Virus record (IMG/VR): IMGVR_UViG_3300025030_000045
DNA from: a virus
Length of the DNA stretch: 64,000 bases
Direction: 5' to 3' (one strand)
Below, one piece after another: positions 1-22,574 of this stretch; the first letter of the stretch is position 1; each line of letters begins with the position of its first letter. The notes beneath the pieces were generated by a model. The model was not told the DNA's origin. It saw only the letters and a list, made by a program, of their open reading frames with translations, and did not search any database. Made by a program: the position numbers and the translations under genes.

Positions 1-2028
1 ACTTATATCTTCTGTGAAGACGAAAAGGATTTGATTATCAAGTTCGTTGATTTCTGGTCGTCTGCGTATCCTGATATCTACACCGGGTGGAACACTGAGG
101 GATTTGACATACCATACATCGTCACTCGTATCAACAAGATTATGCCGACGAATTATGTTCTTCAACTTTCACCGATTCGGAAAGTATCGGCGCATAAGTA
201 TACCGACAACTTTGGTAACGAGCAGATCGGTTACTCAATTGAGGGCATCGTTCATTATGATTACAAAAACCTCTATGAGAAATTCTGTGTTGAACCAAGA
301 GAACAGAAGTCTCTGTCATATATTGCAAAAGTTGAATTAGGCGATGACAAGTTAGACTATGACGGGCCACTGAACGAGTTGTATGAAAATGATTTTCAGA
401 CATACATGTCATACAACATCAAAGACGTTCGGTTGGTGACAGCGATTGATAAGAAGCGTAACTATCTTGCACTTGCTATCACGATGACCTACATGGCGAA
501 ATGTGATTTCAAGGACGTCTTTGGTACAGTTGGTATCTGGGATGCATATCTCTACAACATTCTGCTGTCAAAAAAGATTCTTGCCCCACCGAAGAAATCA
601 AACATCAAAGGTCAGTTCCCTGGTGGATTCGTTGAGGACCCAAGACGTGGCCTTAACTACTGGGTTATGGTACGAGATATCGCATCTTCATATCCAAACT
701 CTATCATCACATATAACATGTCTCCAGAGACAATTGTTGATGAATCAATTCTACCAGATGAACTCAAGAACATCGCCATGCAGTTCGGTAATATTGAAAG
801 CTGTCTTGACCCCGATGTTCTTATGGAAAGAGTACAACCCGTCTTGGACAGATATGATGTCTGTATGGCACCAAACGGAACATTCTATCGTCGTGACAAG
901 ATCGGATTCATTCCAGAAATCGTTGCTGAAATTTTCGCTGGTCGTAAAGGTGCAAAGAGATCAATTAAGGAACTTGATGTATTAGAGAAGACACCTGACA
1001 TTAAGAACCAAATTGCTTCACTTGATGCAATTCAGGGAGCATTTAAGGTATTCATGAACAGTCTTTACGGTGCGATGTCAAACGAATGGTTTAGATATTT
1101 TGACCTTCGTATCGCCGCCGCCATTACATCAGCAGGTCAGACATCCGTTCGTGGTGCTGCAAGATACATTGAAAAGAAACTCCCGGATGTCAAAAACATT
1201 TACACAGACACCGACTCCGTTTTCCTTGACATGGTTCCGACTCTTAATAAACGTTTTGGGGATGAACTACCAGACAATGAAACGGTCGTACACTTCCTGT
1301 TGAAATATAGTGACATGGTTCTTGATCCTGTCCTCAAGGAGTTCTTCAACAAGTTGACGGATGGTCTTAACACAAAACAGAAGACTCTGACGATGGAGCA
1401 TGAATCTATCTCAAACGTCTGCTTGTTCCGTGAAAAGAAAATGTATGCCATGCGGTTGCTTGAGAACGAAGGTACATTCTACTTCGACAAAACGAAACTG
1501 AAGATCAAAGGCATCGAAGTGGTGCGGACATCAACACCGCAATTTGTTCGTGATGCCCTTAAACGAACACTTGAGTTAATCTTCGAAACGGCCGATCAGA
1601 AAGCCGTTAAGGATTATCTTGATTCACAACATGTTATCTTCAAGACATTGCCATTTGAGAAGGTTGCATTCCCTCGTGGTGTCAACGAATTCAACAAGTA
1701 CATTGGTCAAACGAAAGGTGTTCCGTTAGCACCAAGAGCCGCCATTGTCTTTAACAAATTCGTTAAGATGATGAATCTTGAAGATAAGTATCAACTGATA
1801 CACGAAGGCGATAAAGTTAAATACTGCTATCTCAAAGAACCAAATCGAGTTGGCTCTAATGCCATTGCTTGTTTAGATAAGTTCCCCGTTGAGTTTGATC
1901 GAATGTGTCCGATTGATTATGACCTTCAGTGGGAGAAGGCTTATATGAATCCAATGGAGAAGATCTTTGAACTGATCGGTTGGTCAATGAATAATAAAGC
2001 AGTCAGTTTAGAAGATTTTTTCTCCTAG
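1..2028 (+). CDS. 43: Family B DNA polymerase, T4 gp43-like (5'-truncated by window edge)
   Basis: ExoII GWNTEGFDIPY, ExoIII YNIKDV, motif A DIASSYP, motif B KVFMNSLYG, motif C YTDTDS, KGIEVVR; frame open back to base 1; C-terminal SLEDFFS clamp-binding-like tail. Confidence 0.97.
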   Translation, partial: TYIFCEDEKDLIIKFVDFWSSAYPDIYTGWNTEGFDIPYIVTRINKIMPTNYVLQLSPIRKVSAHKYTDNFGNEQIGYSIEGIVHYDYKNLYEKFCVEPREQKSLSYIAKVELGDDKLDYDGPLNELYENDFQTYMSYNIKDVRLVTAIDKKRNYLALAITMTYMAKCDFKDVFGTVGIWDAYLYNILLSKKILAPPKKSNIKGQFPGGFVEDPRRGLNYWVMVRDIASSYPNSIITYNMSPETIVDESILPDELKNIAMQFGNIESCLDPDVLMERVQPVLDRYDVCMAPNGTFYRRDKIGFIPEIVAEIFAGRKGAKRSIKELDVLEKTPDIKNQIASLDAIQGAFKVFMNSLYGAMSNEWFRYFDLRIAAAITSAGQTSVRGAARYIEKKLPDVKNIYTDTDSVFLDMVPTLNKRFGDELPDNETVVHFLLKYSDMVLDPVLKEFFNKLTDGLNTKQKTLTMEHESISNVCLFREKKMYAMRLLENEGTFYFDKTKLKIKGIEVVRTSTPQFVRDALKRTLELIFETADQKAVKDYLDSQHVIFKTLPFEKVAFPRGVNEFNKYIGQTKGVPLAPRAAIVFNKFVKMMNLEDKYQLIHEGDKVKYCYLKEPNRVGSNAIACLDKFPVEFDRMCPIDYDLQWEKAYMNPMEKIFELIGWSMNNKAVSLEDFFS

Positions 2029-8055: not shown

Positions 8056-8781
8056 ATGTCAACCAAAGATAGTCTCGGAGATCGTATGAAAGGCTTCTAT
8101 GAAGCCAGGTCAAAAACATATTTAGCTCGAAGAACACCGGTCATCCTGCGTCTTGATGGGAAAGCATTCCACACGTTCACTCGTGGTTGTGTGAAACCGT
8201 TTGATGAACGCCTACAAGGTGCAATGGAAGCGACTGCAAGATTTCTTTTAGAAAACATTCAAGGGGTCAAGTTGGCATACACCCAGTCTGACGAGATCAC
8301 CCTGCTGTTGACTGACTATGATCGTCTTGAGACAGACGCCTGGTTTGATTACAATGTGCAGAAGATGTGTTCGATTGCCGCGAGTATGGCGGGCGTTAAG
8401 TTCACGTTAGAGTATGCAGATGATGACACTCATTTGTGTGATGTCGACCCAGCATACTTTGATTGCCGCGCATTCAACATTCCGAAAGAAGAAGTCAGCA
8501 ACTGTTTTTATTGGCGGTGCCTTGACTGGGAACGGAATTCGGTTCAGATGTTGGCACAGGCTCACTATTCGGCTAAACAACTTCATGGCGTATCATGTGC
8601 AATGGCAAAGGACATGTTAATCTGTCAGAAGAATATCAATTGGAATGAATTGGCCGATAAGTGGAAGTATGGTTCATTCATTCAACGTGATGAATTCGGT
8701 GATGTATCAATATCATCGGTTAACCTCAAGAATGATCGTTCATGGATTGACGAACTCGTAAACAGAGGTGAATATGTTTAG
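8056..8781 (+). CDS. thg1: tRNA(His) guanylyltransferase Thg1-like protein (3'-5' nucleotidyltransferase)
   Basis: RLDGKAFHTFT, YTQSDEITL, QKMCSIAAS, FDCRAF, YWR...RNS motifs. Confidence 0.92.
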   Translation: MSTKDSLGDRMKGFYEARSKTYLARRTPVILRLDGKAFHTFTRGCVKPFDERLQGAMEATARFLLENIQGVKLAYTQSDEITLLLTDYDRLETDAWFDYNVQKMCSIAASMAGVKFTLEYADDDTHLCDVDPAYFDCRAFNIPKEEVSNCFYWRCLDWERNSVQMLAQAHYSAKQLHGVSCAMAKDMLICQKNINWNELADKWKYGSFIQRDEFGDVSISSVNLKNDRSWIDELVNRGEYV

Positions 8782-9253: not shown

Positions 9254-10666
9254 ATGTCTCTTTTTACACCAACGAATATCCAACCGCTTGATCCAACGAA
9301 AGAAAATGTCGTCTGCTTCATCAATAAGAATGCAGAGAATTTTAGGGATCATTGGGGATTTGCATTTCCGATCATCGATGCGCTGAAGGAAAAGTACAAC
9401 CTGCTTTTTGTTGTGCTCAATGATCGGACATTCCCAACTCTTTATCCTAACTGCTTTGTGTTTAACAACAAAGAGTTAACCCGCATCAATGAAACCGAAT
9501 TTAAGCGAGTAAAGGAATCAGACAATTCTCGTGATCATAATCAATCAATCCTAGAACGGGAGTTCGAACACTCGTTTGGGCAATTCAAAATTCACCGCAT
9601 CATTCTGCTCCAAGATTATATGTTTGCACTTCCGTTGATTCCGTATGTCCCCGCCAAAAAGCACCGAGAACTCCATGATATGCAAAACGAGTACTTTGAT
9701 TATGTTGGTGACGACAACGAACGAATGAATATCATTGATGAGACGAATGCATCAATCGTAGAAAACTTCAACGAACGTGTCAGCGTCATCGCATTCTCAA
9801 TGTGGGATAAGAACCTCTTTTCCAACCTTGTGTTGTGGATGTACAAGAAAAATAAAGAACACTTCAAGATGCTCTATACATCAATCATCGATCCCGGCAT
9901 CTTCTTCGCATTCTTTGAGATGAACGGAATTCCACTCACAAATTATTACTTCGTAGATGACAAACGTGGCACCCGTAATCTTTCGGCATTTCCTTTGGCT
10001 GAACTTCAACATCTTGTCTATGAAGAACCAATAAAGGATGATTTTGATTTCTTCGGAGCATCGCTACCAACTGAAATCGAAAAGGACAAAGATTTCATTT
10101 TCTTCGGTTCGATCTTTTATGAAAAGGGTCCACGTTTGACAATGTGGGACACCTTTCTTCGCGACCTTGATGCATCAAATGCCGAACTCTATATACCGCT
10201 CAAAGCAAACGGTGTGTACTACGGAAAACTTCAACAAGGTTGGCTGGACAAAGCAAAGACGATCGGTGGGCGTGTTTATGATGAAGTTGTCAATCATCCG
10301 TGTTATAAGGGTTACCTCCACCCAGATAATCTTTATGCACAGATTCAACGCTTTAAGTATTCGCTTATCCTACGATGCGTGTCGACATTTGATTCGTTGA
10401 ACTTCCGCCCCGTACTTTATGCCAAGTACAACATCCTTCCTTTCTTTGATGTTGGGTATGATCCTGAATATCTTCAGATTCCAAAGGAGATTCAAGATAA
10501 GCTTATCGTAAAGAATTCCGTTGACATTATGGCGAAAATGGATTATTATAACAGTCACGATGCCGAACGGCTCGCCCTCCTCAAATCCCTCCGCGATCAT
10601 TTCAATGTAGACTTTTGGCTCAATAGACAATGGAGTAATGATGACATCACAAAATACTATTCTTAA
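9254..10666 (+). CDS. GT-B glycosyltransferase, T4 beta-glucosyltransferase-like (GT1)
   Basis: C-terminal half follows the T4 BGT pattern by eye: DFIFFGS..R, YKGYL, KYSLIL, LNFRPV, ILPFFDVGYD, LIVKNSVDIMAKMDYYNSHDAERLALL. Confidence 0.65.
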   Translation: MSLFTPTNIQPLDPTKENVVCFINKNAENFRDHWGFAFPIIDALKEKYNLLFVVLNDRTFPTLYPNCFVFNNKELTRINETEFKRVKESDNSRDHNQSILEREFEHSFGQFKIHRIILLQDYMFALPLIPYVPAKKHRELHDMQNEYFDYVGDDNERMNIIDETNASIVENFNERVSVIAFSMWDKNLFSNLVLWMYKKNKEHFKMLYTSIIDPGIFFAFFEMNGIPLTNYYFVDDKRGTRNLSAFPLAELQHLVYEEPIKDDFDFFGASLPTEIEKDKDFIFFGSIFYEKGPRLTMWDTFLRDLDASNAELYIPLKANGVYYGKLQQGWLDKAKTIGGRVYDEVVNHPCYKGYLHPDNLYAQIQRFKYSLILRCVSTFDSLNFRPVLYAKYNILPFFDVGYDPEYLQIPKEIQDKLIVKNSVDIMAKMDYYNSHDAERLALLKSLRDHFNVDFWLNRQWSNDDITKYYS

Positions 10667-11288
10667 CCTCTGGGACTTTGACGGTACGCTTTTTGATACC
10701 GAACCAGCCCTCTATAAGGTATACAGTCAGGCCCTCCGAGAAGTCACCGGACATATACTTACACCCGAAGTGTGGCAAAGTATTTTTGGAAAAAGTGCAT
10801 ATGCACTTGAAGAACATTACGGCATCTCGCATGAAACGATGGTGAAGGTCCGTGATCGTAAATACGAACTCTATCCACACACACTGTACGATGGCATTTT
10901 CATGATCAATCATGTCAGGCAATTCTGGGATCACCCATTGGCGCTGAATTATGTTTGTACACATACCAATCCTGATGTTGCCGAGACGATACTCGATAAG
11001 TTCGAGATTCGCCCTTGGTTCAAACGTGTCTATGGGCTCAAGGATGTCGGTCATAAGGCAAAACCAGACCCCGCTATGTATCTCTTGGCGATGGGTGTTG
11101 GTATCATCGAGTCGCATGGAATTATCAAACACATAAATATTTTTGAAGATTCGGACTTTGGTCTGGGGGCTGCGGCGAATACGAAAAATGCATTTGATGA
11201 AGAACTCTACAAAGCATTTCCACCCGAGACTAAACTGACAATTTATAAAGTCACCAATGAAGGTATTAATGAATATGAAGCTCCTTAA
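10638..11288 (+). CDS. HAD-superfamily phosphatase / phosphomutase-like
   Basis: Motif I DFDGTLFDT, motif II CTHT, motif III KPDP, motif IV FEDSDFG. Confidence 0.9.
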   Translation: MMTSQNTILNLWDFDGTLFDTEPALYKVYSQALREVTGHILTPEVWQSIFGKSAYALEEHYGISHETMVKVRDRKYELYPHTLYDGIFMINHVRQFWDHPLALNYVCTHTNPDVAETILDKFEIRPWFKRVYGLKDVGHKAKPDPAMYLLAMGVGIIESHGIIKHINIFEDSDFGLGAAANTKNAFDEELYKAFPPETKLTIYKVTNEGINEYEAP

Positions 11289-12249
11289 AGGCGGGTCAGC
11301 CTCATCCGTTTATTTAGATGAAATACATAATGAAATCCTTAAGACCGTTAGAGTTACCGACACTAACGGTTTTAATCATCTTCGTGACCAGCACTGCTGG
11401 ATGGCCTATCACAAAGAAGCCCTCCCTAACTATTTTCCGCATATAGGCGACGACTTCTTCAAAGATGGTCTGTATTGCTATCGGATGGAATTTGTTGAGG
11501 GTAAAACTCTCGACAAGATGCTTGATAATAAATTCATCGCAAGAAATTTACTTGAAGATGTAATGCACACCGTGGTGAGTATATCAGACATTGATTTCAT
11601 TCCAAAAGGAAACACGACATTCACGACATACATTGATCGACTCAAGGGTCACCTCCGCCGTCTGAAGAAAGAGACGATCTTTGTTGATATGTTGATGAAA
11701 AAAGAATTTATCCTCGTAGAGAACGGTGTTGAGAAAGTCATACCAAACATTGACTTTATTAAATTCATTTCTATGTTGACATCAATGACATCGTACATGG
11801 ACAAGCAGTACTCAAACTGCCACGGCGACCTCACTCTTGAAAACATAATCATAAACGAGTATGAAGATTTTGGCTGCAACCGCATCAAGTTCATTGATGA
11901 CAACTTTATCTTCAACGGGTGGAATTCATATCTGCTTGATTATTCAAAAATATTTCAAAGTCTTCATTTTAATTATGAAGAAACATTTTCTGATTCGTCG
12001 TCGTTAATCATTGACGATGGTAAATATTTGTTGACTTATAACACAGAAAATGTTAAAATTAAAGAATACTTATTTGGACATGGTTGTGGATTTTTTACCG
12101 ACGCCGTTCGTGATGCGTCACTCGTACTTGAGGTAACGCATTACATTCGTATGCTTATCTATAAACTCGCCATCAGTCAAAAGGATTTCATCGTTGCATA
12201 TATTCGCACCTGCCAAGCCTATCACGAATTAAAGAAAAGAGGATCATAA
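11269..12249 (+). CDS. APH/choline-kinase-like phosphotransferase
   Basis: Gly-rich LKGGSAS, YRMEFVEG hinge, Brenner motif HGDLTLENI, KFID, DYSKIFQS. Confidence 0.85.
   Translation: MNMKLLKGGSASSVYLDEIHNEILKTVRVTDTNGFNHLRDQHCWMAYHKEALPNYFPHIGDDFFKDGLYCYRMEFVEGKTLDKMLDNKFIARNLLEDVMHTVVSISDIDFIPKGNTTFTTYIDRLKGHLRRLKKETIFVDMLMKKEFILVENGVEKVIPNIDFIKFISMLTSMTSYMDKQYSNCHGDLTLENIIINEYEDFGCNRIKFIDDNFIFNGWNSYLLDYSKIFQSLHFNYEETFSDSSSLIIDDGKYLLTYNTENVKIKEYLFGHGCGFFTDAVRDASLVLEVTHYIRMLIYKLAISQKDFIVAYIRTCQAYHELKKRGS
12031..12059 (+). promoter_or_regulatory. Internal sigma70-like promoter upstream of radical SAM gene
   Basis: TTGACT-17bp-TAAAAT with TG extension, same architecture as the intergenic early promoters. 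Confidence 0.5.
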
Positions 12250-13152
12250 ATGGAAGATATCAAATATCTAATGTTATCACCAACAAGCAGGTGCAACCTT
12301 GCTTGTGAGAAGTGTAACAGAAAAGGTTCGGGAACCGATTTCCCCTGGGATGATTACAAGGCCATTATTTTTTCATCCTTCCCCAACTTGAATTTTGCAA
12401 AACTTCAAGGAATGGGCGAACCATTCATGGCCAAGGACCTCGGTCGGATGGCAAAAGAACTTAAGGATCATTATCCAGGAATCAAGACTCTCACAATCAC
12501 CAACGGAACTCTTAATTACAATGCTCCGGCATTTGATGATGTCTATAAGAATCTTGATATGCTTTATGTCTCGATTGATTCTGTGAACAATATCAGCGAA
12601 ACGATCGGCGCTCATGCCGTTCTTGCAACGCTTTTTGAGAAGTCAAAGGAGTTTGGGTTCCAACTATATGTCAACACTATTCTTTTTCCGTGGAACCTCA
12701 AGTGCATTGCCGATGTGAAGAGGCTTGTTCAAGAGTATCCTGGTGTGAAGATGCGTGTCCAACATCAACAATGTTGGAATGATGTATCAAACATCGAATC
12801 AGTGGACATCGAAGTCTTCAATAAATTCGTTGCACCGTTGTTTGATGATGTTATGGAATACATCGGCCGTGATGATTTTTATTATACCGAATGTGATTGG
12901 AATACTAAGCGGATTCAGATTGACGAGCTCGGTAACATCCGTCTCTGTTGTCTGAAAACTGATAACTCTATCATCGGTCAAATCACCGATCTTGGACTAT
13001 ATAAAGCTGTTGCTGAACGGATCAAAGCAAGAATATCTGTTGATGCGTGGCCGATGGTGATTCGTCCACATTTTGGTCTTTGTGAGACATGCACATTCGT
13101 TCAGCTGAACCCAATTAACAAACAGATCTTGAAGATTTTGGAGGAAAGATGA
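12250..13152 (+). CDS. Radical SAM enzyme with C-terminal SPASM/twitch-like Cys cluster
   Basis: CNLACEKC (CxxxCxxC), QGMGEP, ITNGT, VSIDS; C-terminal C..IDELGNIRLCC..CETC. Confidence 0.9.
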   Translation: MEDIKYLMLSPTSRCNLACEKCNRKGSGTDFPWDDYKAIIFSSFPNLNFAKLQGMGEPFMAKDLGRMAKELKDHYPGIKTLTITNGTLNYNAPAFDDVYKNLDMLYVSIDSVNNISETIGAHAVLATLFEKSKEFGFQLYVNTILFPWNLKCIADVKRLVQEYPGVKMRVQHQQCWNDVSNIESVDIEVFNKFVAPLFDDVMEYIGRDDFYYTECDWNTKRIQIDELGNIRLCCLKTDNSIIGQITDLGLYKAVAERIKARISVDAWPMVIRPHFGLCETCTFVQLNPINKQILKILEER

Positions 13153-13856
13153 TTCCAAAGGCTGCTCTTATTCTTGCGGCGGGCGCGTCAACCCGCTTCG
13201 GAAAAAATAAACTTCTTACTAAGATCGGCGACAGAACTCTTCCACAGCAATGTGTTGAGTTTGCGATCAATAACGGTATGGATGACGTCTATGTCACGAT
13301 CAGTAAAAGAGATTTCTTTTTCCTCAACGATCATAAGACATTGACACATCCAATAATCGAATCATTGTCTCCATATGATTGCCTTATTAACCTTCACTAC
13401 CAATTCCAGAATGAAGAGGAGAAGGGGCCGGGAGCCGCTATCAAGGTTTGGCAAGGTATCATAAATAAACCTTTCGTTTGTCTGTTCGGTGATAACTATT
13501 ATTCGGGTTCTCTTCCTTACATGGATTTCAATGAATATGATTGCTTTGTGAGTTATCGTGAACTTGAAAAGAATTCGCGGAACTTACAACTTGCATATCT
13601 TGACGGTAACATCGTCATCGAGAAGCCCCATGCATTCACCGAAGGAAAGTTCTTCTGCGGCTATACGGCATTCAGCGAAAAGGTGTTTGACCAACTCAAT
13701 AACTGCCTCATATCTGGACGCGGCGAATATGAAATCACTGATCTGATTAACTTTATGGATCGGAGATGTTTCCTTTTCAATAGTCTCGTGTGGGGTGACA
13801 TTACTTTTGCTGGAGATGAAGCAAAAATCGTTGATATGATTGGAGGAAAGAAATGA
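13149..13856 (+). CDS. Sugar-1-phosphate nucleotidyltransferase (RmlA/GalU-like)
   Basis: ALILAAGASTRFGKNKLL, FGDN, IEKP, SGRGEYEITD. Confidence 0.9.
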   Translation: MIPKAALILAAGASTRFGKNKLLTKIGDRTLPQQCVEFAINNGMDDVYVTISKRDFFFLNDHKTLTHPIIESLSPYDCLINLHYQFQNEEEKGPGAAIKVWQGIINKPFVCLFGDNYYSGSLPYMDFNEYDCFVSYRELEKNSRNLQLAYLDGNIVIEKPHAFTEGKFFCGYTAFSEKVFDQLNNCLISGRGEYEITDLINFMDRRCFLFNSLVWGDITFAGDEAKIVDMIGGKK

Positions 13857-13996
13857 ATTTTTGGCAATTTTTAAATCTGAGACCTGTACTATCATTCTTT
13901 ATTATTTTTATCTTTTGTGCAACCATTATTGATGTCGTGCATTCACTTTCTACGAAAACAGTAGAATGCAAGCATGGATGGGTGGTGCCCAAGTGA
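13853..13996 (+). CDS. Small membrane peptide (47 aa, not in ORF track)
   Basis: GGAGG RBS; ATGA and GTGA overlaps couple it to both neighbours; one hydrophobic helix. Confidence 0.5.
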   Translation: MNFWQFLNLRPVLSFFIIFIFCATIIDVVHSLSTKTVECKHGWVVPK

Positions 13997-15282
13997 AAGT
14001 TGGATATGGGAAAATAGGCAAGAGCATTCTTTTTAATGAATCGCTGTGGGCAGCGATCGGCGGAGACTGTGAGGCGCCGGCCGTCATCACCTCTGTTGCT
14101 CGCTATAACCCCGATGACACTTTCTATCTGATCGGTAAGTCTGACTTCTCTCGATTGTCAGATGCTAAACGAAAAGAGGTTGCACCGAATAACAACATCA
14201 TTGATGTTTGGGGTGATTTCCGCCGTGGAGATAATGTCACTGACTTTGTCGTCAATTGGTTTGAGAAGAATAATGTCAAACTTGACACCGCATTCTTTTA
14301 TGGTGGCCCAGCCGGTAATGCAAACATGCCTGATAAGATCAAGACGGTAAAGGGAGATCGGATTGCTAAGGTTCTTGAGTGCTTTGAGAACTATGTCGGT
14401 CCTATCGCTCACTATCTGAACGTATCTGGGATTGACTATTTTACTCTAACGCCGGACCCGCGATATCATCCTATTCGTGCACGAGACCTCTACAATATCT
14501 CGAAGTTTGCACTGTCTCAATTCAATTCAAAGGACATGCAAGTCAAGCATATCGTCAACTATGAGGATCAGTCATATCTGTTCTCTAAGGTGCCGACATT
14601 CTATACCGCGCTTGAAACGGTGTTCCTCATTGATAAAAAGAAACCCGACCTTCTTGAACTTGCCAAACATAAAAAGAAGAAGTTCATGGTGGTGTTGAAT
14701 GAGGGCGGCAACGGTGGATTGAGCCGCGGTCCTGAGCTTAAGCGCTGGGTACTCAATCACCTTGAGGACGTTGACATTTACGGTAAGTGGTCTGACGAGT
14801 GGATGAAGGATACTCGATTCAAAGGATCGGTGAAATTCCAAACTCTTCAGGATATGTTGCCTGATGTTAAATACACCTTCATCATACCGATTCAGCGTGG
14901 TTGGGCAACGATGAAGTTCTGGGAAGTATTACAATATGGCATCATTCCGTTTATGCATCCTTGGTACGACGAGCAGATGAATCTTGATGTTCCAGAATTC
15001 ATTCGTGTGGAAACTCCCGAAGAACTATTTGAAAAAATTGAGTTTTTGGAGAACAACCCGGCTGAATACACCGCCCTTCTCGAGAAACTTAACCAAGTTC
15101 TCAAGAATAAATATTACACCGGTGAACATATCAACAACCTCATCATGAAGTCGTGCTACAGGGTTGCCGGAAAAGATGCCAGTTTATATGAATTAACCTC
15201 CGAGAAAATGTTGCAGATTGATTCTGGTCTATCGGTGAAGATGAAAGCCGAAGGAACCGATCTGTCTGACTTCTTCTCCTAA
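13993..15282 (+). CDS. GT-B glycosyltransferase, T4 beta-glucosyltransferase-like (GT2)
   Basis: Probable GTG start 13993; N-terminal KIGKS..IGGDCEA, DPRY, VDIYGKW, FKGSV, KYTFIIP, TMKFWEVLQYGIIPFMHPWYD, IRVETPEELFEKI; ends DLSDFFS. Confidence 0.7.
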   Translation: MKVGYGKIGKSILFNESLWAAIGGDCEAPAVITSVARYNPDDTFYLIGKSDFSRLSDAKRKEVAPNNNIIDVWGDFRRGDNVTDFVVNWFEKNNVKLDTAFFYGGPAGNANMPDKIKTVKGDRIAKVLECFENYVGPIAHYLNVSGIDYFTLTPDPRYHPIRARDLYNISKFALSQFNSKDMQVKHIVNYEDQSYLFSKVPTFYTALETVFLIDKKKPDLLELAKHKKKKFMVVLNEGGNGGLSRGPELKRWVLNHLEDVDIYGKWSDEWMKDTRFKGSVKFQTLQDMLPDVKYTFIIPIQRGWATMKFWEVLQYGIIPFMHPWYDEQMNLDVPEFIRVETPEELFEKIEFLENNPAEYTALLEKLNQVLKNKYYTGEHINNLIMKSCYRVAGKDASLYELTSEKMLQIDSGLSVKMKAEGTDLSDFFS

Positions 15283-15905
15283 TGAAAGGATGCTCAATGT
15301 CAAAAATTTTTACAGATGCATATGGCCAGGAAATTTCGATTGGTGATCTCATTTTCCATTCACCAAGAACAAAATACGGCCGGGCACGTATTGGTGTTGT
15401 CATTAGTACTAATATGCACGGTGTACGATATGTTAAAGCCAACGTAATTCAAGAACCGGGCTTACCCGACAACTTTAGTATTTCTTCTTGTAAGAGATCA
15501 CGTAACTGTATTGTGATGAAATTCGACAGTATTTCAAATCAGAACAGCAAAGAGATGACAACACTTGCTGGGTTAGTTGAACATGCTGTTGGGTTGATTA
15601 ACAAAAGAGAAAAGTTCAATCACAAAGACCAACTCGGACAAGACATTAATGTCGGTGACTTCGTTGTTTATGGGGCGAGTGCTTTTGGTGGTGGAGCGGT
15701 GACCCGTTGTGGCATCGTTACAAAGCTTAACCAAACATCCATTACTTACTTGACGATGATGCTCAAGTGGACCGGAAGAGAGTATAAAAATAAACCCAAA
15801 CTCACCTGTGCTTTTGCCCCCGGGCAAGCCGTCATCATCAAGAATAAAGAGTATGACACCCCAGAATTAAGGGCCCTCAAGGAGGCATTCAAAAATGTCA
15901 AGTAA
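15282..15905 (+). CDS. Hypothetical protein with internally duplicated small beta-barrel-like domain
   Basis: DAYGQEISIGDLI..RIGVV and DQLGQDINVGDFV..RCGIV repeats. Confidence 0.65.
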   Translation: MKGCSMSKIFTDAYGQEISIGDLIFHSPRTKYGRARIGVVISTNMHGVRYVKANVIQEPGLPDNFSISSCKRSRNCIVMKFDSISNQNSKEMTTLAGLVEHAVGLINKREKFNHKDQLGQDINVGDFVVYGASAFGGGAVTRCGIVTKLNQTSITYLTMMLKWTGREYKNKPKLTCAFAPGQAVIIKNKEYDTPELRALKEAFKNVK

Positions 15906-17142
15906 AAAGAAGAATATCAAATGGGCGTCGATCATCCCTCTCGCCGGCGGTATGTCAATCGGTATGGAACAGGCAATCGGTCACAAACCAGAATTCATCA
16001 TTAGCTTCCCGGGTTTCCAGGCTAATGATGCTCACCTTCGTAACTATTGGCCGGATGTCCCTTATCATATCATCGACGAGAACTTCGACAAGGGTGCGGT
16101 ATTCAAACCGGGCAGTATTGACATCGTAAACTCCGTGTGTCCCTGTGCAGGACTTTCGATGTTGAACACAGGTGGCAACAAAAATTCTGGTAAAGCTCGT
16201 GGATCAGATGCCGTCCAAAATCAGCATATGTACAATTCATCTCGCTATGTTCTTGAGCATATCCAACCGAAAGTTCTGTTCGGTGAAAACGCCCCGGGAC
16301 TTATCACCAAGATCGGTGAAGGCGTTCAGGCTGAACTCTACAAGATTGCTGAAGAATTCGGTTATTCATTCTCGATTGTCAAGACGAGCACCAAGTATCA
16401 TGGCATTCCCCAGAATCGTATTCGTACATTCTTCTTTTTCTGGAAAGCGGACTCTGCACCGATCCTCAATTACTACGATCGCACGAAAGAGACCAAGAAC
16501 ATCGTTGATTATCTCAAGGACATCCCTGCAGATGCTTCTTATCAGGACACCAATGATGTCCTTCGTGAAAAGATGTTCAAGAACTACACCTTCCTATTCA
16601 TGCGGGACAAGTACGGCGCCGACAATTGGCGAGAAGTCATGTGGAAAGAGAACAGCAAAACAGTCTGGGCTCATGTCTGTAAGAACAATCTCGTCGAAGA
16701 ACTGAAGGAATTCTCCTACAAGATCAATGACCGTCGTGGTATCAAAGAGACCGAACATGCGATCAAAAAGTTTGCTGCTGGACTCGGTATCTGGGATGGT
16801 TCTGTTCATCTGTTCAAAGACGAGATCAATGCTGTCGTCGGTCGTAACATGGCTGACTCTATTCACCCGACAGAAGATCGTTATATGAATGCCCGTGAAT
16901 ATCTCCACCTCATGGGACACCCTCATGACTATGAACTCACTGACATCAAGTGGCAACACCACCTCACACAAAATGTCCCCACCTGCACATCAAGAGATTG
17001 GACATATGAGGTTATTAAATTTATCGAAGGTAAACTTCCTTTCTCTGGTGTCAGGGACCTTCGTCAGGATAACATCAAGCAGTGCATCAACACAAAAGGT
17101 GTCAATGTCGAGAACGAGTTCTCATCTGACTTTTTTGCTTAA
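15895..17142 (+). CDS. DNA cytosine-C5 methyltransferase-like protein
   Basis: Motif IV CPCAGLS, VI GENA, VIII HGIPQNRIRTF, IX AREYLHLMGHP, X QNVP; motif I atypical (IIPLAGG). Confidence 0.85.
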   Translation: MSSKKKNIKWASIIPLAGGMSIGMEQAIGHKPEFIISFPGFQANDAHLRNYWPDVPYHIIDENFDKGAVFKPGSIDIVNSVCPCAGLSMLNTGGNKNSGKARGSDAVQNQHMYNSSRYVLEHIQPKVLFGENAPGLITKIGEGVQAELYKIAEEFGYSFSIVKTSTKYHGIPQNRIRTFFFFWKADSAPILNYYDRTKETKNIVDYLKDIPADASYQDTNDVLREKMFKNYTFLFMRDKYGADNWREVMWKENSKTVWAHVCKNNLVEELKEFSYKINDRRGIKETEHAIKKFAAGLGIWDGSVHLFKDEINAVVGRNMADSIHPTEDRYMNAREYLHLMGHPHDYELTDIKWQHHLTQNVPTCTSRDWTYEVIKFIEGKLPFSGVRDLRQDNIKQCINTKGVNVENEFSSDFFA

Positions 17143-17149
17143 ATCAAAA

Positions 17150-17181
17150 TCGGCGATGGTCTATGATTAGACCATCGCCGA
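17150..17181. terminator. Hairpin closing the modification cluster
   Basis: TCGGCGATGGTCTA-TGAT-TAGACCATCGCCGA 14-bp stem; no U-tract on +. Confidence 0.55.
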
Positions 17182-17857: not shown

Positions 17858-18544
17858 ATGAACAGAATAAAGGTTAATCTGATAGCGCATTCTGACCCAA
17901 CGGCTGTCATCAATGCAATGGGCAAGCCGTATAAAAATGAAAAGGTCACAACGGAACTCATCAAGAGAATCTGTCTCGGTGAGAAGCTTGCAGAACGACA
18001 TGGTTCTGTTCTTGAACATATTACTCTAACATGGGAGGTTCTCGGTTCATCTCGTCTTGAACTCCAAGAACACATGCGACACCGCATTGCATCTCCGACC
18101 GTCGAGAGCACTCGTTATGTTCTTGATAAGATGATGCTGCAGTATGAAAATCGCGGTTGGGCATTTGCTCCGGTCAAAGATTACTTCGTGTTTCCTGACC
18201 TATCAAACACCGATTGGTCAGACGAGAAGAAGGCTAAGTTCGATGAGATGTATGCCGAGAAGTGTCGGGCTAATCTCGACAGCATTTATGCTTTCTTCAA
18301 AACATTTTACACCACGAAGAAAGATAACGACACGATCAAGTATGTCCTTCCTGAAAACCTCCGGACGAACTTCACATTTACTTTGAATTTTAGATCATTT
18401 ATCAACTTCATTCGGCTGCGCAACTCTTCAGCCGCACACTTTGAAATACGATACATAGCCAGATTGATGTTAGAAGAACTTAAACAGACATGGTTGTGGG
18501 AATTGATCGAAGATCAGTTTGACGAGGATCTTTGTCCCAAATAA
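17858..18544 (+). CDS. thyX: FAD-dependent thymidylate synthase ThyX
   Basis: HGSVLEH, QEHMRHRIASPTVESTRY (RHRx7S), LP..T, NFRSFINFIRLR, AHFEIR. Confidence 0.93.
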   Translation: MNRIKVNLIAHSDPTAVINAMGKPYKNEKVTTELIKRICLGEKLAERHGSVLEHITLTWEVLGSSRLELQEHMRHRIASPTVESTRYVLDKMMLQYENRGWAFAPVKDYFVFPDLSNTDWSDEKKAKFDEMYAEKCRANLDSIYAFFKTFYTTKKDNDTIKYVLPENLRTNFTFTLNFRSFINFIRLRNSSAAHFEIRYIARLMLEELKQTWLWELIEDQFDEDLCPK

Positions 18545-19409
18545 ACCACCCGACTGTGTTATGACCTTCCTGACTAATTCGAGTTGCTTTATCTGACAGA
18601 GAAATTTTACCTTTGTTTAAATTTGATTTTAGCATGGTCATAGATAGATTATTATTTTTCACAAAATCAGAAAAGCCATAGTGTACTATATGAAATTCTG
18701 AATTCGGGTCTATTAGATACCATGTTTTCTTTTTACCCGAATTCATTTTCATTTTATCACGACATTCCCCGGTTCTCTTTTTACCTTTGTTCGCGGCAGC
18801 AAGTTTCATTTTTGTTTCATCTGTATGATGTTTGCCGCTCATTGGGTTGTTGATTAACATCCTATTTCGCATATCATCAATTGCTCGCGGGTTCTCGTTT
18901 AGAAATTTCTTTCTACTGTCCGATTGTTTTATTTTTGTTTCTAAACTTCGGTGTTGGCCTCGACGTTTTTCAGCGGCAACTTTCCATGACTGTTTGTCAC
19001 GTAATGCGGTGGTACACTTGATTCTCTTAATGATGTCGTCTCTATTTGGATGATTGCTGATTGTGTCTCCACCATCGCCACCTTCGGTTATATTGAGGAG
19101 AGGACCATTATCACAAATTCTTCCTATATGTAATATCATAAATTTTTCATACTCTAGTGCAAGCTTTGATGAATTTCTATTTAATATGACCACATATGAA
19201 AGTGGGTCATATTTTTCTTTTATAATTTTCTTTATTTTTGCACGTTTCTTTGAATTTGGAAAACTGTCTACATATAGCGTATGATGTTTCCATCTGTTTG
19301 CCGTACCTTTACCAACGTAAAATGGTTCGAATAAAAATGACACATCAAGGCCATCATAATCGAATTTTCCCGGGCGTCTTGGGTCCACATAAACATAATT
19401 GTAATTCAT
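18480..19409 (-). mobile_element. Free-standing GIY-YIG homing endonuclease (Seg-like) with NUMOD3-type repeats
   Basis: YVYVD..PFYVGKG..R..H..E..LLNITEGGDG; NPMSGKHHTDETK; AAGGAG RBS; antisense to flanking genes. Confidence 0.85.
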
Positions 19410-21239: not shown

Positions 21240-22574
21240 ATGGCTTTTACAAGAACATACGACGACGTCATCTCTCTTACCAACTGCACCATCCTCAAGC
21301 AATTCATTGATACATTCTACAATCTCATCCCAGACCAATCGGTATTTTTCGGCGACGCAAATGCCATCCCTTCTCGATTAAAAATCTTCACGATCAAAAC
21401 ATCAAAAGATAATTACCTTGCTGCCATTCCGGCTCTCAAGTCGAAGTATGACGTGATAGCAGTTGGATCGGAGTATACGAATTTCTCTGTTGGTGATTTT
21501 AAGATTAAAATTTTGATTACACGGAAGACGAAGGCAATATCTTCGCAGGATGCGATGACAACGAAGAAGCAAGAAGAAGCTTCGCTGTTTGCAATCGAGA
21601 TGGGGCTGAAGAACATCCCATTTACAATAGACGACATCAAGCAAATTCATCCTGAGTGTTCATCCAGCTGGTACCAATGTTATATCCAACAGTCTCAGGC
21701 GATAAAGTCCTTTTGGGGACATTTTTCGGGTAAGTATGTTTTCAATCATACTGGTGGGTTCATGGATTTTATCTCTAACAAGGCCCGCGAACTTGGTTAC
21801 AGACAGAAGGATGCATGGAACCCAGCCGATGTTTGGATCATAAGGAAAGACGACGAGACTTTAATCAAGGCAACGATTGACGGCATGGAGAACATTGGTG
21901 AGCTCAACGATTATCTAATCACGCTATTGAATGAAAGAAAGCTTGTTGGTATTTCTCTAAAGAAGACCGGCCTCAATGCAAGAGTTGAGGTGTCAAACAT
22001 CATCAAGAATCAGCAGCATAAGAGTTTTAGTTTTGATCGAATGGTGTGTTCCTTTGAACTTGACTCTGTAAATAAATTGAAGACTGCACAGGGTATGTTC
22101 TTTATCGACGACTACCGATTACAGTGTCGCCAGTTTCCATTCAAGTCAAACTCAAATACACAGTTAGAAATTGCGAGTAGGAAGGCCGAGTCTCGTCTAG
22201 GCAAAGTTCCGAAAGATGGTGTACGGGCCGTTCTTGAACAACACAAATTTACCGTACCGACATGGAGAGTCATCCCAAAGGATAAGCCGGAATTTATGCG
22301 TGACGCCGATCATTGGCTCCGTATATTCAAGACAGTGAATATTGTCGCGGAGACAGGAATAACGAATGATGAATTTATTCCAACAATGCTTCAACTTTTT
22401 GACCACGACGAGCTGTACGTCATGTCCTATGTTAACTGTAAATTACAGGCACTAATGTATGCATATGCATTCGCATTCATATCGCCAGATTCACGCGATG
22501 ATGTGGCAACAAAACTTGTGTACCTTGCAAAAAAGGAAGACATAAATGCTGGGCCGTTCGTAAAGATTTATTGA
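21240..22574 (+). CDS. PD-(D/E)xK-like endonuclease, putative
   Basis: KKQEEAS, WNPADVWI, LVGISLKK motifs; regulated like homing endonuclease genes. Confidence 0.55.
   Translation: MAFTRTYDDVISLTNCTILKQFIDTFYNLIPDQSVFFGDANAIPSRLKIFTIKTSKDNYLAAIPALKSKYDVIAVGSEYTNFSVGDFKIKILITRKTKAISSQDAMTTKKQEEASLFAIEMGLKNIPFTIDDIKQIHPECSSSWYQCYIQQSQAIKSFWGHFSGKYVFNHTGGFMDFISNKARELGYRQKDAWNPADVWIIRKDDETLIKATIDGMENIGELNDYLITLLNERKLVGISLKKTGLNARVEVSNIIKNQQHKSFSFDRMVCSFELDSVNKLKTAQGMFFIDDYRLQCRQFPFKSNSNTQLEIASRKAESRLGKVPKDGVRAVLEQHKFTVPTWRVIPKDKPEFMRDADHWLRIFKTVNIVAETGITNDEFIPTMLQLFDHDELYVMSYVNCKLQALMYAYAFAFISPDSRDDVATKLVYLAKKEDINAGPFVKIY

Follow-up and report, generated by a model that had tools for sequence, protein, structure and literature searches.

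What does a phage modify when it carries, side by side, two glycosyltransferases (GT1 and GT2), a set of sugar-activating enzymes, a radical SAM enzyme and a protein with the fold of a C5 DNA methyltransferase (MTase), and with which sugar? This combination is encoded by nine open reading frames (ORFs) at positions 9254-17142 of a 64,000-nucleotide stretch of DNA, the whole of which we refer to as the window, from the virus record IMGVR_UViG_3300025030_000045. Phages classically protect their DNA from restriction enzymes and CRISPR with glycosylated 5-hydroxymethylcytosine (hmC), and recent work has revealed that the sugars attached to DNA are far more diverse than glucose. Our analysis indicates that the cluster is very probably a system for the glycosylation of a cytosine derivative in DNA with two related GT-B transferases. 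We further consider it likely that these genes form the post-replicative half of a T4-style hmC glycosylation pathway, supplied with a donor sugar that the phage makes for itself in a manner resembling the Afh system of phages RB69 and DLP3.

GT2 and the genes around its homologues

The gene for GT2 (13966..15282, plus strand; the gene callers' start at 13993 is the likely one) encodes a GT-B enzyme resembling T4 beta-glucosyltransferase (BGT). Its AlphaFold model, built from an alignment with 40 metagenomic homologues, has a pLDDT of 92.5, and the top Foldseek match of this model is T4 BGT (1qkj, E 1e-9); no other solved structure comes closer along the full length of the chain. In the structure comparison the HY126 glycosyltransferase trails BGT by 5 Z units. 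Within the family Asp164 is invariant and Asp107 nearly so, and the two residues are candidate equivalents of the catalytic D100 of BGT. Sequence searches of the PDB with GT1, GT2 and the kinase of the cluster returned nothing useful, and a scan of viral contigs with the GT2 sequence alone gave no match, an alignment profile being needed to recover the loci. The family-profile search yielded 80 IMG/VR loci which, together with two loci from phage isolates, make up the set of 82 discussed here.

The neighbours of the GT2 homologues are those expected of a nucleotide-modifying replication module. A ThyA homologue lies 1.5-5 kb upstream of GT2 in 56 of the 82 loci; all 56 have the aspartate that specifies deoxycytidine monophosphate (dCMP), and several are 48-55% identical to T4 gp42. 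The 80 IMG/VR loci also contain genes for dCMP deaminase (41), a MazG-like pyrophosphatase (37) and, just downstream, UvsX (42). In T4 the genes follow each other as 43...42, b-gt, (segA), uvsX, and because the order relative to the gp42-like genes and UvsX is the same, the GT2 homologues sit in the slot occupied by T4 beta-gt. A cultured example is provided by Enterococcus phage Planchet, in which a GT2 homologue has as neighbours a gene annotated as thymidylate synthase/pyrimidine hydroxymethylase and genes for a dUTPase and two other glycosyltransferases. Taken with the modelled fold, these associations suggest that GT2 is probably an hmC-DNA glycosyltransferase. No homologue of T4 b-gt, of the Afh-like genes of RB69 or of the sister cassettes described below was detected by tblastn (E 0.01 or better) in this genome, of which ~105 kb of ~170 kb was read by walking along the contig.

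The same neighbourhood bears on the proposal that the target is not DNA but a host envelope polysaccharide or the virion proteins, with the MTase as an unrelated anti-restriction methylase. Such a role would be in keeping with the small membrane peptide encoded in the cluster and with the finding that ~65% of surveyed phage glycosyltransferase contigs have no base-modification neighbour (bioRxiv 10.1101/2023.12.21.572611). The GT2 homologues, however, lie within replication modules in close association with genes for gp42-like proteins, dCMP deaminase and MazG-like proteins, the enzyme that GT2 most resembles in structure acts on DNA, and both GT2 and the MTase end in a polymerase-type C-terminal tail. 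We therefore regard a target other than DNA as improbable.

GT1 (9254..10666, plus strand) is a 470-residue GT-B-type glycosyltransferase with a weak match to PF13524. It belongs to a separate family with 76 or more metagenomic members, several of which share a contig with a GT2 homologue, but hhalign shows the donor-binding, C-terminal half to be homologous to that of the GT2 family over 139 columns (96.5%, E 1e-9). Among its Atlas neighbours are viral clusters, some of them annotated as PF09198 (T4-Gluco-transf), which serve as leads only because the Atlas model is of low confidence. The earlier note on this DNA had described two BGT-like glycosyltransferases; the description is borne out by structure for GT2 and in part for GT1, through the shared donor-binding half and the Atlas leads. 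GT1 probably adds a second sugar or creates a different linkage. A 7.7-kb contig, L007, is 100% identical to the window from position 10037 onward and differs upstream, within GT1 (divergent part L007:1-625); it may be a natural variant in which the N-terminal half of GT1 has been exchanged, or else a chimeric assembly.

A putative hydroxymethylase elsewhere in the genome and a probable donor-sugar cassette

The earlier note had found neither a TET/JBP dioxygenase nor a dCMP hydroxymethylase in the window and had concluded that the chemistry would be new. The first part holds for the ORFs scanned: no TET/JBP dioxygenase (PF12851) is present among the cluster genes, the scanned window ORFs or the Pfam annotations of the flanking loci. 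Nor do the scanned window ORFs include a ThyA-type gene, but the second part does not extend to the genome: the same contig carries, ~17 kb past the end of the window and ~65 kb from GT2, a gene for a 294-residue ThyA homologue, P0121. The best PDB matches of this protein are the CMP hydroxymethylase MilA (2e-24) and T4 gp42 (2e-21), with the best true thymidylate synthase at 8.5e-12. It has the motifs DFVCT and RSNDIWFGVTYD, the catalytic cysteine is present, an aspartate occupies the position of residue 177 of E. coli ThyA, and Asp169 is kept. Alignment with T4 gp42 and RB69 gp48 shows RSND...D, as in gp42, where the RB69 synthase of 5-hydroxycytosine (5hoC) has RSQN. These features, which are characteristic of the gp42/MilA branch of dCMP hydroxymethylases, lead us to infer that P0121 belongs to it. 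Because the genome appears to encode such an enzyme, and 56 of the 82 GT2 loci hold genes of this kind, the argument for new chemistry fails.

The gene for P0121 is followed directly by one for dCMP deaminase, and its vicinity also includes genes for a NUDIX hydrolase and a thymidylate-kinase-like protein. A flavin-dependent thymidylate synthase, ThyX, is encoded at 17858..18544 on the plus strand (PF02511; phrog_85, E 2.6e-29) and would supply dTMP, leaving the ThyA-like enzyme free to act on cytosine. The 3' end of the thyX gene overlaps a minus-strand gene for a 309-residue GIY-YIG/homing-endonuclease-like protein (phrog_314; window 17858-19409).

The sugar itself would be provided by three further enzymes of the cluster. 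The first is a HAD-superfamily phosphatase or phosphomutase of the HAD_2, beta-PGM-like subfamily (10638..11288, plus strand; PF13419, E 1.5e-15), which matches the TIGR02009 subfamily at E 1.8e-9, under its cutoff. It is followed by an APH-fold kinase, probably acting on a sugar or sugar phosphate (11257..12249, plus strand), which has no Pfam match and is recognised by Atlas features and structure: on features it scores 0.98 against clusters where PF01636 is found in no more than 10-21% of members, and its TM score is ~0.8 to clusters of nucleotidyltransferase-APH and HAD-nucleotidyltransferase-APH fusions. Homologues of the kinase occur in contigs L013, L092 and L099, and in the latter two it adjoins the HAD gene as well. 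The third is a sugar-1-phosphate nucleotidyltransferase of the RmlA/GlmU/AglF type (NTP_transf_3; 13149..13856, plus strand), with matches to PF12804 (E 2.7e-8) and PF00483 and to TIGR01208 and TIGR03992 at ~2-3e-13, under their cutoffs. With all three domains present, the phage very probably builds its own NDP-sugar, as the earlier note had proposed.

A cassette of kinase and nucleotidyltransferase lies beside GT2 in 74 of the 80 IMG/VR loci and takes two forms. In 48 loci it consists of a 500-residue nucleotidyltransferase-kinase fusion and a 120-residue PNKP-type HAD protein, the architecture of AfhE/AfhF (PMC13326640). In the other 26 it consists of a 350-residue kinase and a 150-residue cytidylyltransferase-like protein, joined in 13 by an NAD-dependent (SDR) epimerase/dehydratase, and looks like an ADP-heptose-type route; some of these loci also encode a 305-residue protein of no assigned family. 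The cassette of the window has kinase, HAD protein and nucleotidyltransferase as separate genes, together with the radical SAM enzyme.

The parallel with AfhE/AfhF raises the possibility that the whole system is of the Afh type, with the ThyA homologue making 5-hydroxy-dCMP and the cluster making UDP-arabinose to arabinosylate 5hoC as in RB69, DLP3 and HY126. The three donor-pathway activities are indeed the same (PMC13326640), as are the type of phage and the hotspot between gene 43 and uvsX. Several observations speak against it, however. D169N, the signature of 5-hydroxy-dCMP synthases (PMC13326640), is missing from P0121, which keeps the aspartate like T4 gp42; the HAD protein is of a different subfamily; tblastn with GT2 found no RB69-type transferase; BGT outscores the HY126 transferase in structure; and no arabinose-5-phosphate isomerase (SIS/API domain) is encoded in the cluster or the regions read, although a host enzyme could serve. 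An Afh-type pathway is accordingly unlikely, and we retain hmC as the glycosylated base.

The radical SAM enzyme (12250..13152, plus strand; PF04055) offers a further clue to the sugar. Its family has the invariant cysteines C15, C19 and C22 of the CxxxCxxC motif and four more towards the C-terminus (C215, C233, C278 and C281), a pattern that fits one auxiliary cluster, as in twitch-like domains, better than a full SPASM domain. The earlier note's domain calls are sound overall, with small corrections such as this. The best PDB match of the family profile is BtrN (E 3.7e-17, over two stretches that take in the C-terminal domain), and SkfB, viperins and BlsE rank behind it. The cysteine motifs, the single auxiliary 4Fe-4S domain and BtrN as closest solved relative are the features of BtrN-type twitch dehydrogenases. 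A reading of the enzyme as a viperin was rejected, as NF038283 gives 35.7 bits against a cutoff of 180 and viperins rank behind BtrN.

The family is rare: only three proteins, including that of the window, were found at E <1e-30 among 1.84 billion representatives. The other two are encoded on the T4-like contigs L092 and L099, within blocks of HAD, kinase, radical SAM/nucleotidyltransferase and GT2 genes (followed in L092 by an MTase), and in three lineages the gene is placed between kinase and nucleotidyltransferase. The gene set that the earlier note had suggested looking for in other phages recurs in these two distant contigs from HAD to GT2. Of the 82 GT2-MTase loci, 79 lack the radical SAM gene. 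More remote relatives include radical SAM-SPASM proteins in fusion with an SDR, a DegT sugar aminotransferase or an APH kinase. Judging from these sequence relationships, the enzyme would tailor the sugar by oxidation or epimerisation, taking the place of the SDR found in some sister cassettes.

The methyltransferase-like partner and the proposed pathway

The MTase gene (15895..17142, plus strand; PF00145, E 3.7e-20) is a near-constant companion of GT2, a homologue lying after GT2 in 79 of the 82 loci. The fold and the catalytic motifs are those of the PF00145 family: motifs IV (PC), VI (ENx, here ENAP) and VIII (QxRxR) are intact, Cys84, Q173, R175 and R177 being invariant and Pro83 nearly so. 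The cofactor motifs, in contrast, are off consensus throughout the family, with PLxGG in place of FxGxGG in motif I and QNVP in place of GN(S/A)V in motif X, and solved methyltransferases, 3g7u excepted, align with the family profile no earlier than motif IV. We also considered and rejected the carboxymethyltransferase CmoX as a model, since the protein has CPC and not SPPC, a nearly invariant Asn360 at the position of HhaI Asn304, where CmoX has Arg350, and no CmoA-like gene in the cluster. Among cultured phages the family is found in Pseudoalteromonas phage XG4 (vB_Psh_XG4), which also has ThyA, HAD, nucleotidyltransferase-kinase and GT2 genes, and in cyanophages of the S-TIM5 group, whereas Enterococcus Denvervirus phages have GT2 and no MTase. 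S-TIM5 itself has ThyA and the MTase but no GT2; in Cyanophage S-TIM54 (OP053362.1 142150-146239) the MTase-like gene lies near ThyA and a gene for a 560-residue hypothetical protein, and tblastn detected no GT2 homologue.

The presence of this gene and of a radical SAM enzyme in one cluster could suggest a different order of events, a new post-replicative chemistry in which cytosine in DNA is first methylated by the C5-MTase, the resulting 5-methylcytosine (5mC) is turned into 5-hydroxymethylcytosine by the radical SAM enzyme, anaerobically and in place of TET, and the glycosyltransferases then act on the product. The close pairing of MTase and GT2, the intact PC, ENx and QxRxR motifs, the radical SAM gene within the cluster and the lack of TET/JBP among the scanned ORFs all agree with it. 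Yet the radical SAM gene is missing from all but three of the GT2-MTase loci, where gp42-like genes occur, its family is closest to BtrN and is fused to sugar-pathway enzymes in its relatives, its place in three lineages is between two sugar-activating enzymes, and the genome has a gp42/MilA-like enzyme of its own. A radical SAM enzyme in the role of TET thus finds no support, and the scheme as a whole has in our view only a slim chance of being correct. The earlier note's comparison with C5-MTases of phage hypermodification clusters survives in that the MTase is a true, conserved partner of GT2, and falls in that its role is not a route from 5mC to 5hmC. It may instead place ordinary 5mC on residual cytosine or carry out chemistry on hmC itself.

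A second link between GT2, the MTase and replication is found at their C-termini. The gp43-type DNA polymerase of the phage ends in SLEDFFS (2005..2025, plus strand), GT2 in DLSDFFS and the MTase in SSDFFA; the clamp-binding ends of T4 and RB69 gp43 are SLDFLFG and SLFDMFDF. Nearly all MTase homologues end in L-E/D-x-F-x, as does only a subset of the GT2 homologues, and a gene for the phage sliding clamp lies upstream of the window (phrog_223, 3e-38; L096:2532-3206). In a predicted complex of the clamp trimer with the last 50 residues of the MTase, ipSAE reached 0.57 against 0.00 for the best control, with run agreement of at least 63% and a partner pLDDT of at least 52, a result graded as weak support. 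In calibration 58 of 80 solved complexes passed the ipSAE mark, as did 2 of 110 mismatched pairs; of those 80, only 7 passed with a value of 0.60 or under, a range that also held both passing mismatches. As the complex of the RB69 clamp with the polymerase peptide has been solved, the pass may reflect memory and indicates likeness at most. The tails of MTase and GT2 probably dock on the sliding clamp.

Together, these elements suggest the following pathway. P0121, encoded beside dCMP deaminase, would make 5-hydroxymethyl-dCMP, while ThyX and the deaminase would provide dTMP. Kinases would take hydroxymethyl-dCMP to the triphosphate for incorporation by the phage polymerase, and GT2, as its fold and synteny suggest, would place a sugar on the hydroxymethyl group in DNA; GT1, which shares the donor-binding half, would add a second sugar or form a different linkage. 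For the donor, the domains suggest that kinase, HAD protein and nucleotidyltransferase convert a sugar phosphate to an NDP-sugar via a bisphosphate, as AfhE/AfhF do for UDP-arabinose, and the BtrN-like radical SAM enzyme would oxidise or epimerise the sugar without oxygen or NAD, like the NAD-dependent epimerase/dehydratase of the sister cassettes. The MTase-like neighbour and GT2, if docked on the clamp by their tails, may act at or just behind the replication fork.

Several observations weigh against this reading. P0121 is only 28% identical to T4 gp42, and whether it adds a hydroxymethyl, a hydroxy or a methyl group is judged from its best matches and two residues. The lead of BGT over other GT-B enzymes as a match for GT2 is <3 Z units, both GT2 and GT1 miss the Pfam BGT model PF09198, and the Pfam scan gives only PF13524, below its cutoff. 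The sugar genes of the window have no BLAST-level similarity to those of the sister cassettes or of RB69; as tblastn found no match, the equivalence of the cassettes rests on domains and not on orthology. No MazG-type dCTPase is encoded in the part of the genome read, where only a dUTPase and a NUDIX hydrolase were found, and complete replacement of cytosine accordingly lacks support. Finally, it is hard to see what a C5-methyltransferase would act on where C5 already bears a substituent.

This last point invites a bolder and distinctly speculative proposal, which we put forward as possible though doubtful: the MTase, with a rebuilt cofactor pocket and a clamp tail, would do something other than plain cytosine methylation and attack C6 of hmC or its glycoside at the fork to give an undescribed cytosine adduct and, independently, the radical SAM enzyme would make a keto, epimeric or deoxy sugar never seen on DNA.

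Genome context and comparison with known systems

The phage is a T4-like myovirus, with genes for a gp43-type polymerase, TerL, tail sheath, portal and a gp23-type capsid protein, the last ~35% identical at most to that of any cultured phage. The longest metagenomic contigs of this phage are 170 kb, and searches of cultured phages with the cluster, GT1 or the radical SAM enzyme (megablast, tblastn) gave no match. All nine ORFs of the cluster are on the plus strand and neighbours abut or overlap by 4-32 nt, which agrees with the co-directional, mostly overlapping run closed by a hairpin that the earlier note had reported. The hairpin, a perfect 14-bp inverted repeat at 17150..17181, follows the MTase stop codon on its 3' side, and its direction as a terminator is ambiguous because the T-run is on the minus-strand side.

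Two small plus-strand genes complete the cluster. The first encodes a 47-residue hydrophobic peptide (13853..13996) with a single hydrophobic stretch in its translation; it is called as a gene, and its 4-nt overlaps are kept in all strain contigs. The second encodes a 207-residue hypothetical protein (15282..15905) that matches only PHROGs of unknown function. The latter gene is missing from most related loci, and in the strain contig L004 (99.9% identity) the loss of 35 nt, corresponding to window 15638-15672, splits it into ORFs of 122 and 68 residues, so that it looks dispensable or variable, or is decaying in that strain. In eight IMG/VR loci a 354-382-residue protein without a family is encoded between GT2 and the MTase.

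Further genes were noted around the cluster. A Thg1-like tRNA-His guanylyltransferase gene (window 8056-8781; PF04446; phrog_4717, E 1e-83) lies two genes upstream, and a conserved 444-residue phage protein without a Pfam family (phrog_1462, E 2e-50) is encoded at window 21240-22574. Before the window begins, between the clamp-loader genes and the polymerase, lie genes for a dUTPase and for a 165-residue protein with a dNMP-kinase-like N-terminus (L096:5566-6511), and on the same contig the 44-62 gene pair is interrupted by a homing-endonuclease-like gene.

If our reading is correct, GT2 represents a large uncharacterised family of BGT-like enzymes that marks hmC phages in environmental viromes. 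The replacement of an NAD-dependent epimerase by a radical SAM enzyme in a donor cassette would imply a new DNA-linked sugar made without oxygen, while an MTase-fold enzyme kept in phages whose C5 is presumably already occupied poses a biochemical paradox. Polymerase-like clamp tails on DNA-modifying enzymes, if true, would account for the ability of modification to keep up with replication. Epigenetic sequencing could, in addition, make use of new modified bases and DNA glycosyltransferases as tools.

The class to which the system belongs is known in outline, since a survey has recorded GT-B contigs associated with ThyS homologues, with methyltransferases, APH phosphotransferases, epimerases, clamp and 'viperin' annotations nearby (bioRxiv 10.1101/2023.12.21.572611). 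In the literature, including that on marine phages, Denvervirus and S-TIM5, we found no characterisation of the GT2 family, of its fixed MTase-like partner or of a radical SAM step in a DNA-sugar cassette. In the MT-5mYOX(TET)-GT pathways of phages, 5hmC serves as a handle for glycosylation by GT-B or GT-A enzymes (bioRxiv 10.1101/2023.12.21.572611, PMC8256090). Here no dioxygenase was found and hmC would be made before replication, and the MTase therefore cannot play the part it has in those pathways. CmoX, a phage DNA cytosine C5-carboxymethyltransferase (PDB 8YF3, PMC12783734), is, as the MTase of the window may be, a phage enzyme that uses its cofactor for something other than transfer of the SAM methyl group; it has SPPC and Arg350, however, where the MTase of the window has CPC and an asparagine, and neither CmoA nor a ligase was seen nearby. 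BtrN, the 2-deoxy-scyllo-inosamine dehydrogenase (PDB 4M7T), is similar to the radical SAM enzyme in size, in its CxxxCxxC motif and in its single C-terminal auxiliary cluster domain, but it serves an aminoglycoside pathway and not a phage DNA-glycosylation cassette, and the identity between the two is low.

Closer parallels are found among the T4-like phages themselves. The Afh system of RB69 and DLP3, which produces arabinosyl-5-hydroxycytosine (PMC13326640), shares with the present one a ThyA homologue, a nucleotidyltransferase, an APH-like kinase, a HAD phosphatase and several DNA-acting GT-B transferases. Its nucleotidyltransferase-kinase fusion and small HAD protein recur in the sister loci, whereas in the window kinase and nucleotidyltransferase are unfused; the cluster lacks both the isomerase and a U32 protein, the ThyA homologue is without D169N, and the radical SAM enzyme and the MTase-like protein are additional. 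Like T4 with its gp42 and BGT (GT63, PDB 1J39/1QKJ), the phage has a ThyA-family enzyme that carries the dCMP-specifying aspartate and would make hmC before replication, and its relatives have the slot between gene 43 and uvsX in common with T4. GT2 is nevertheless only ~10% identical to BGT, is ~80 residues longer and ends in a clamp-type tail that BGT lacks, and the putative hydroxymethylase gene of this genome lies far from it. T4 draws on the UDP-glucose of its host, whereas the present phage would make its own donor and has a conserved MTase-like partner.

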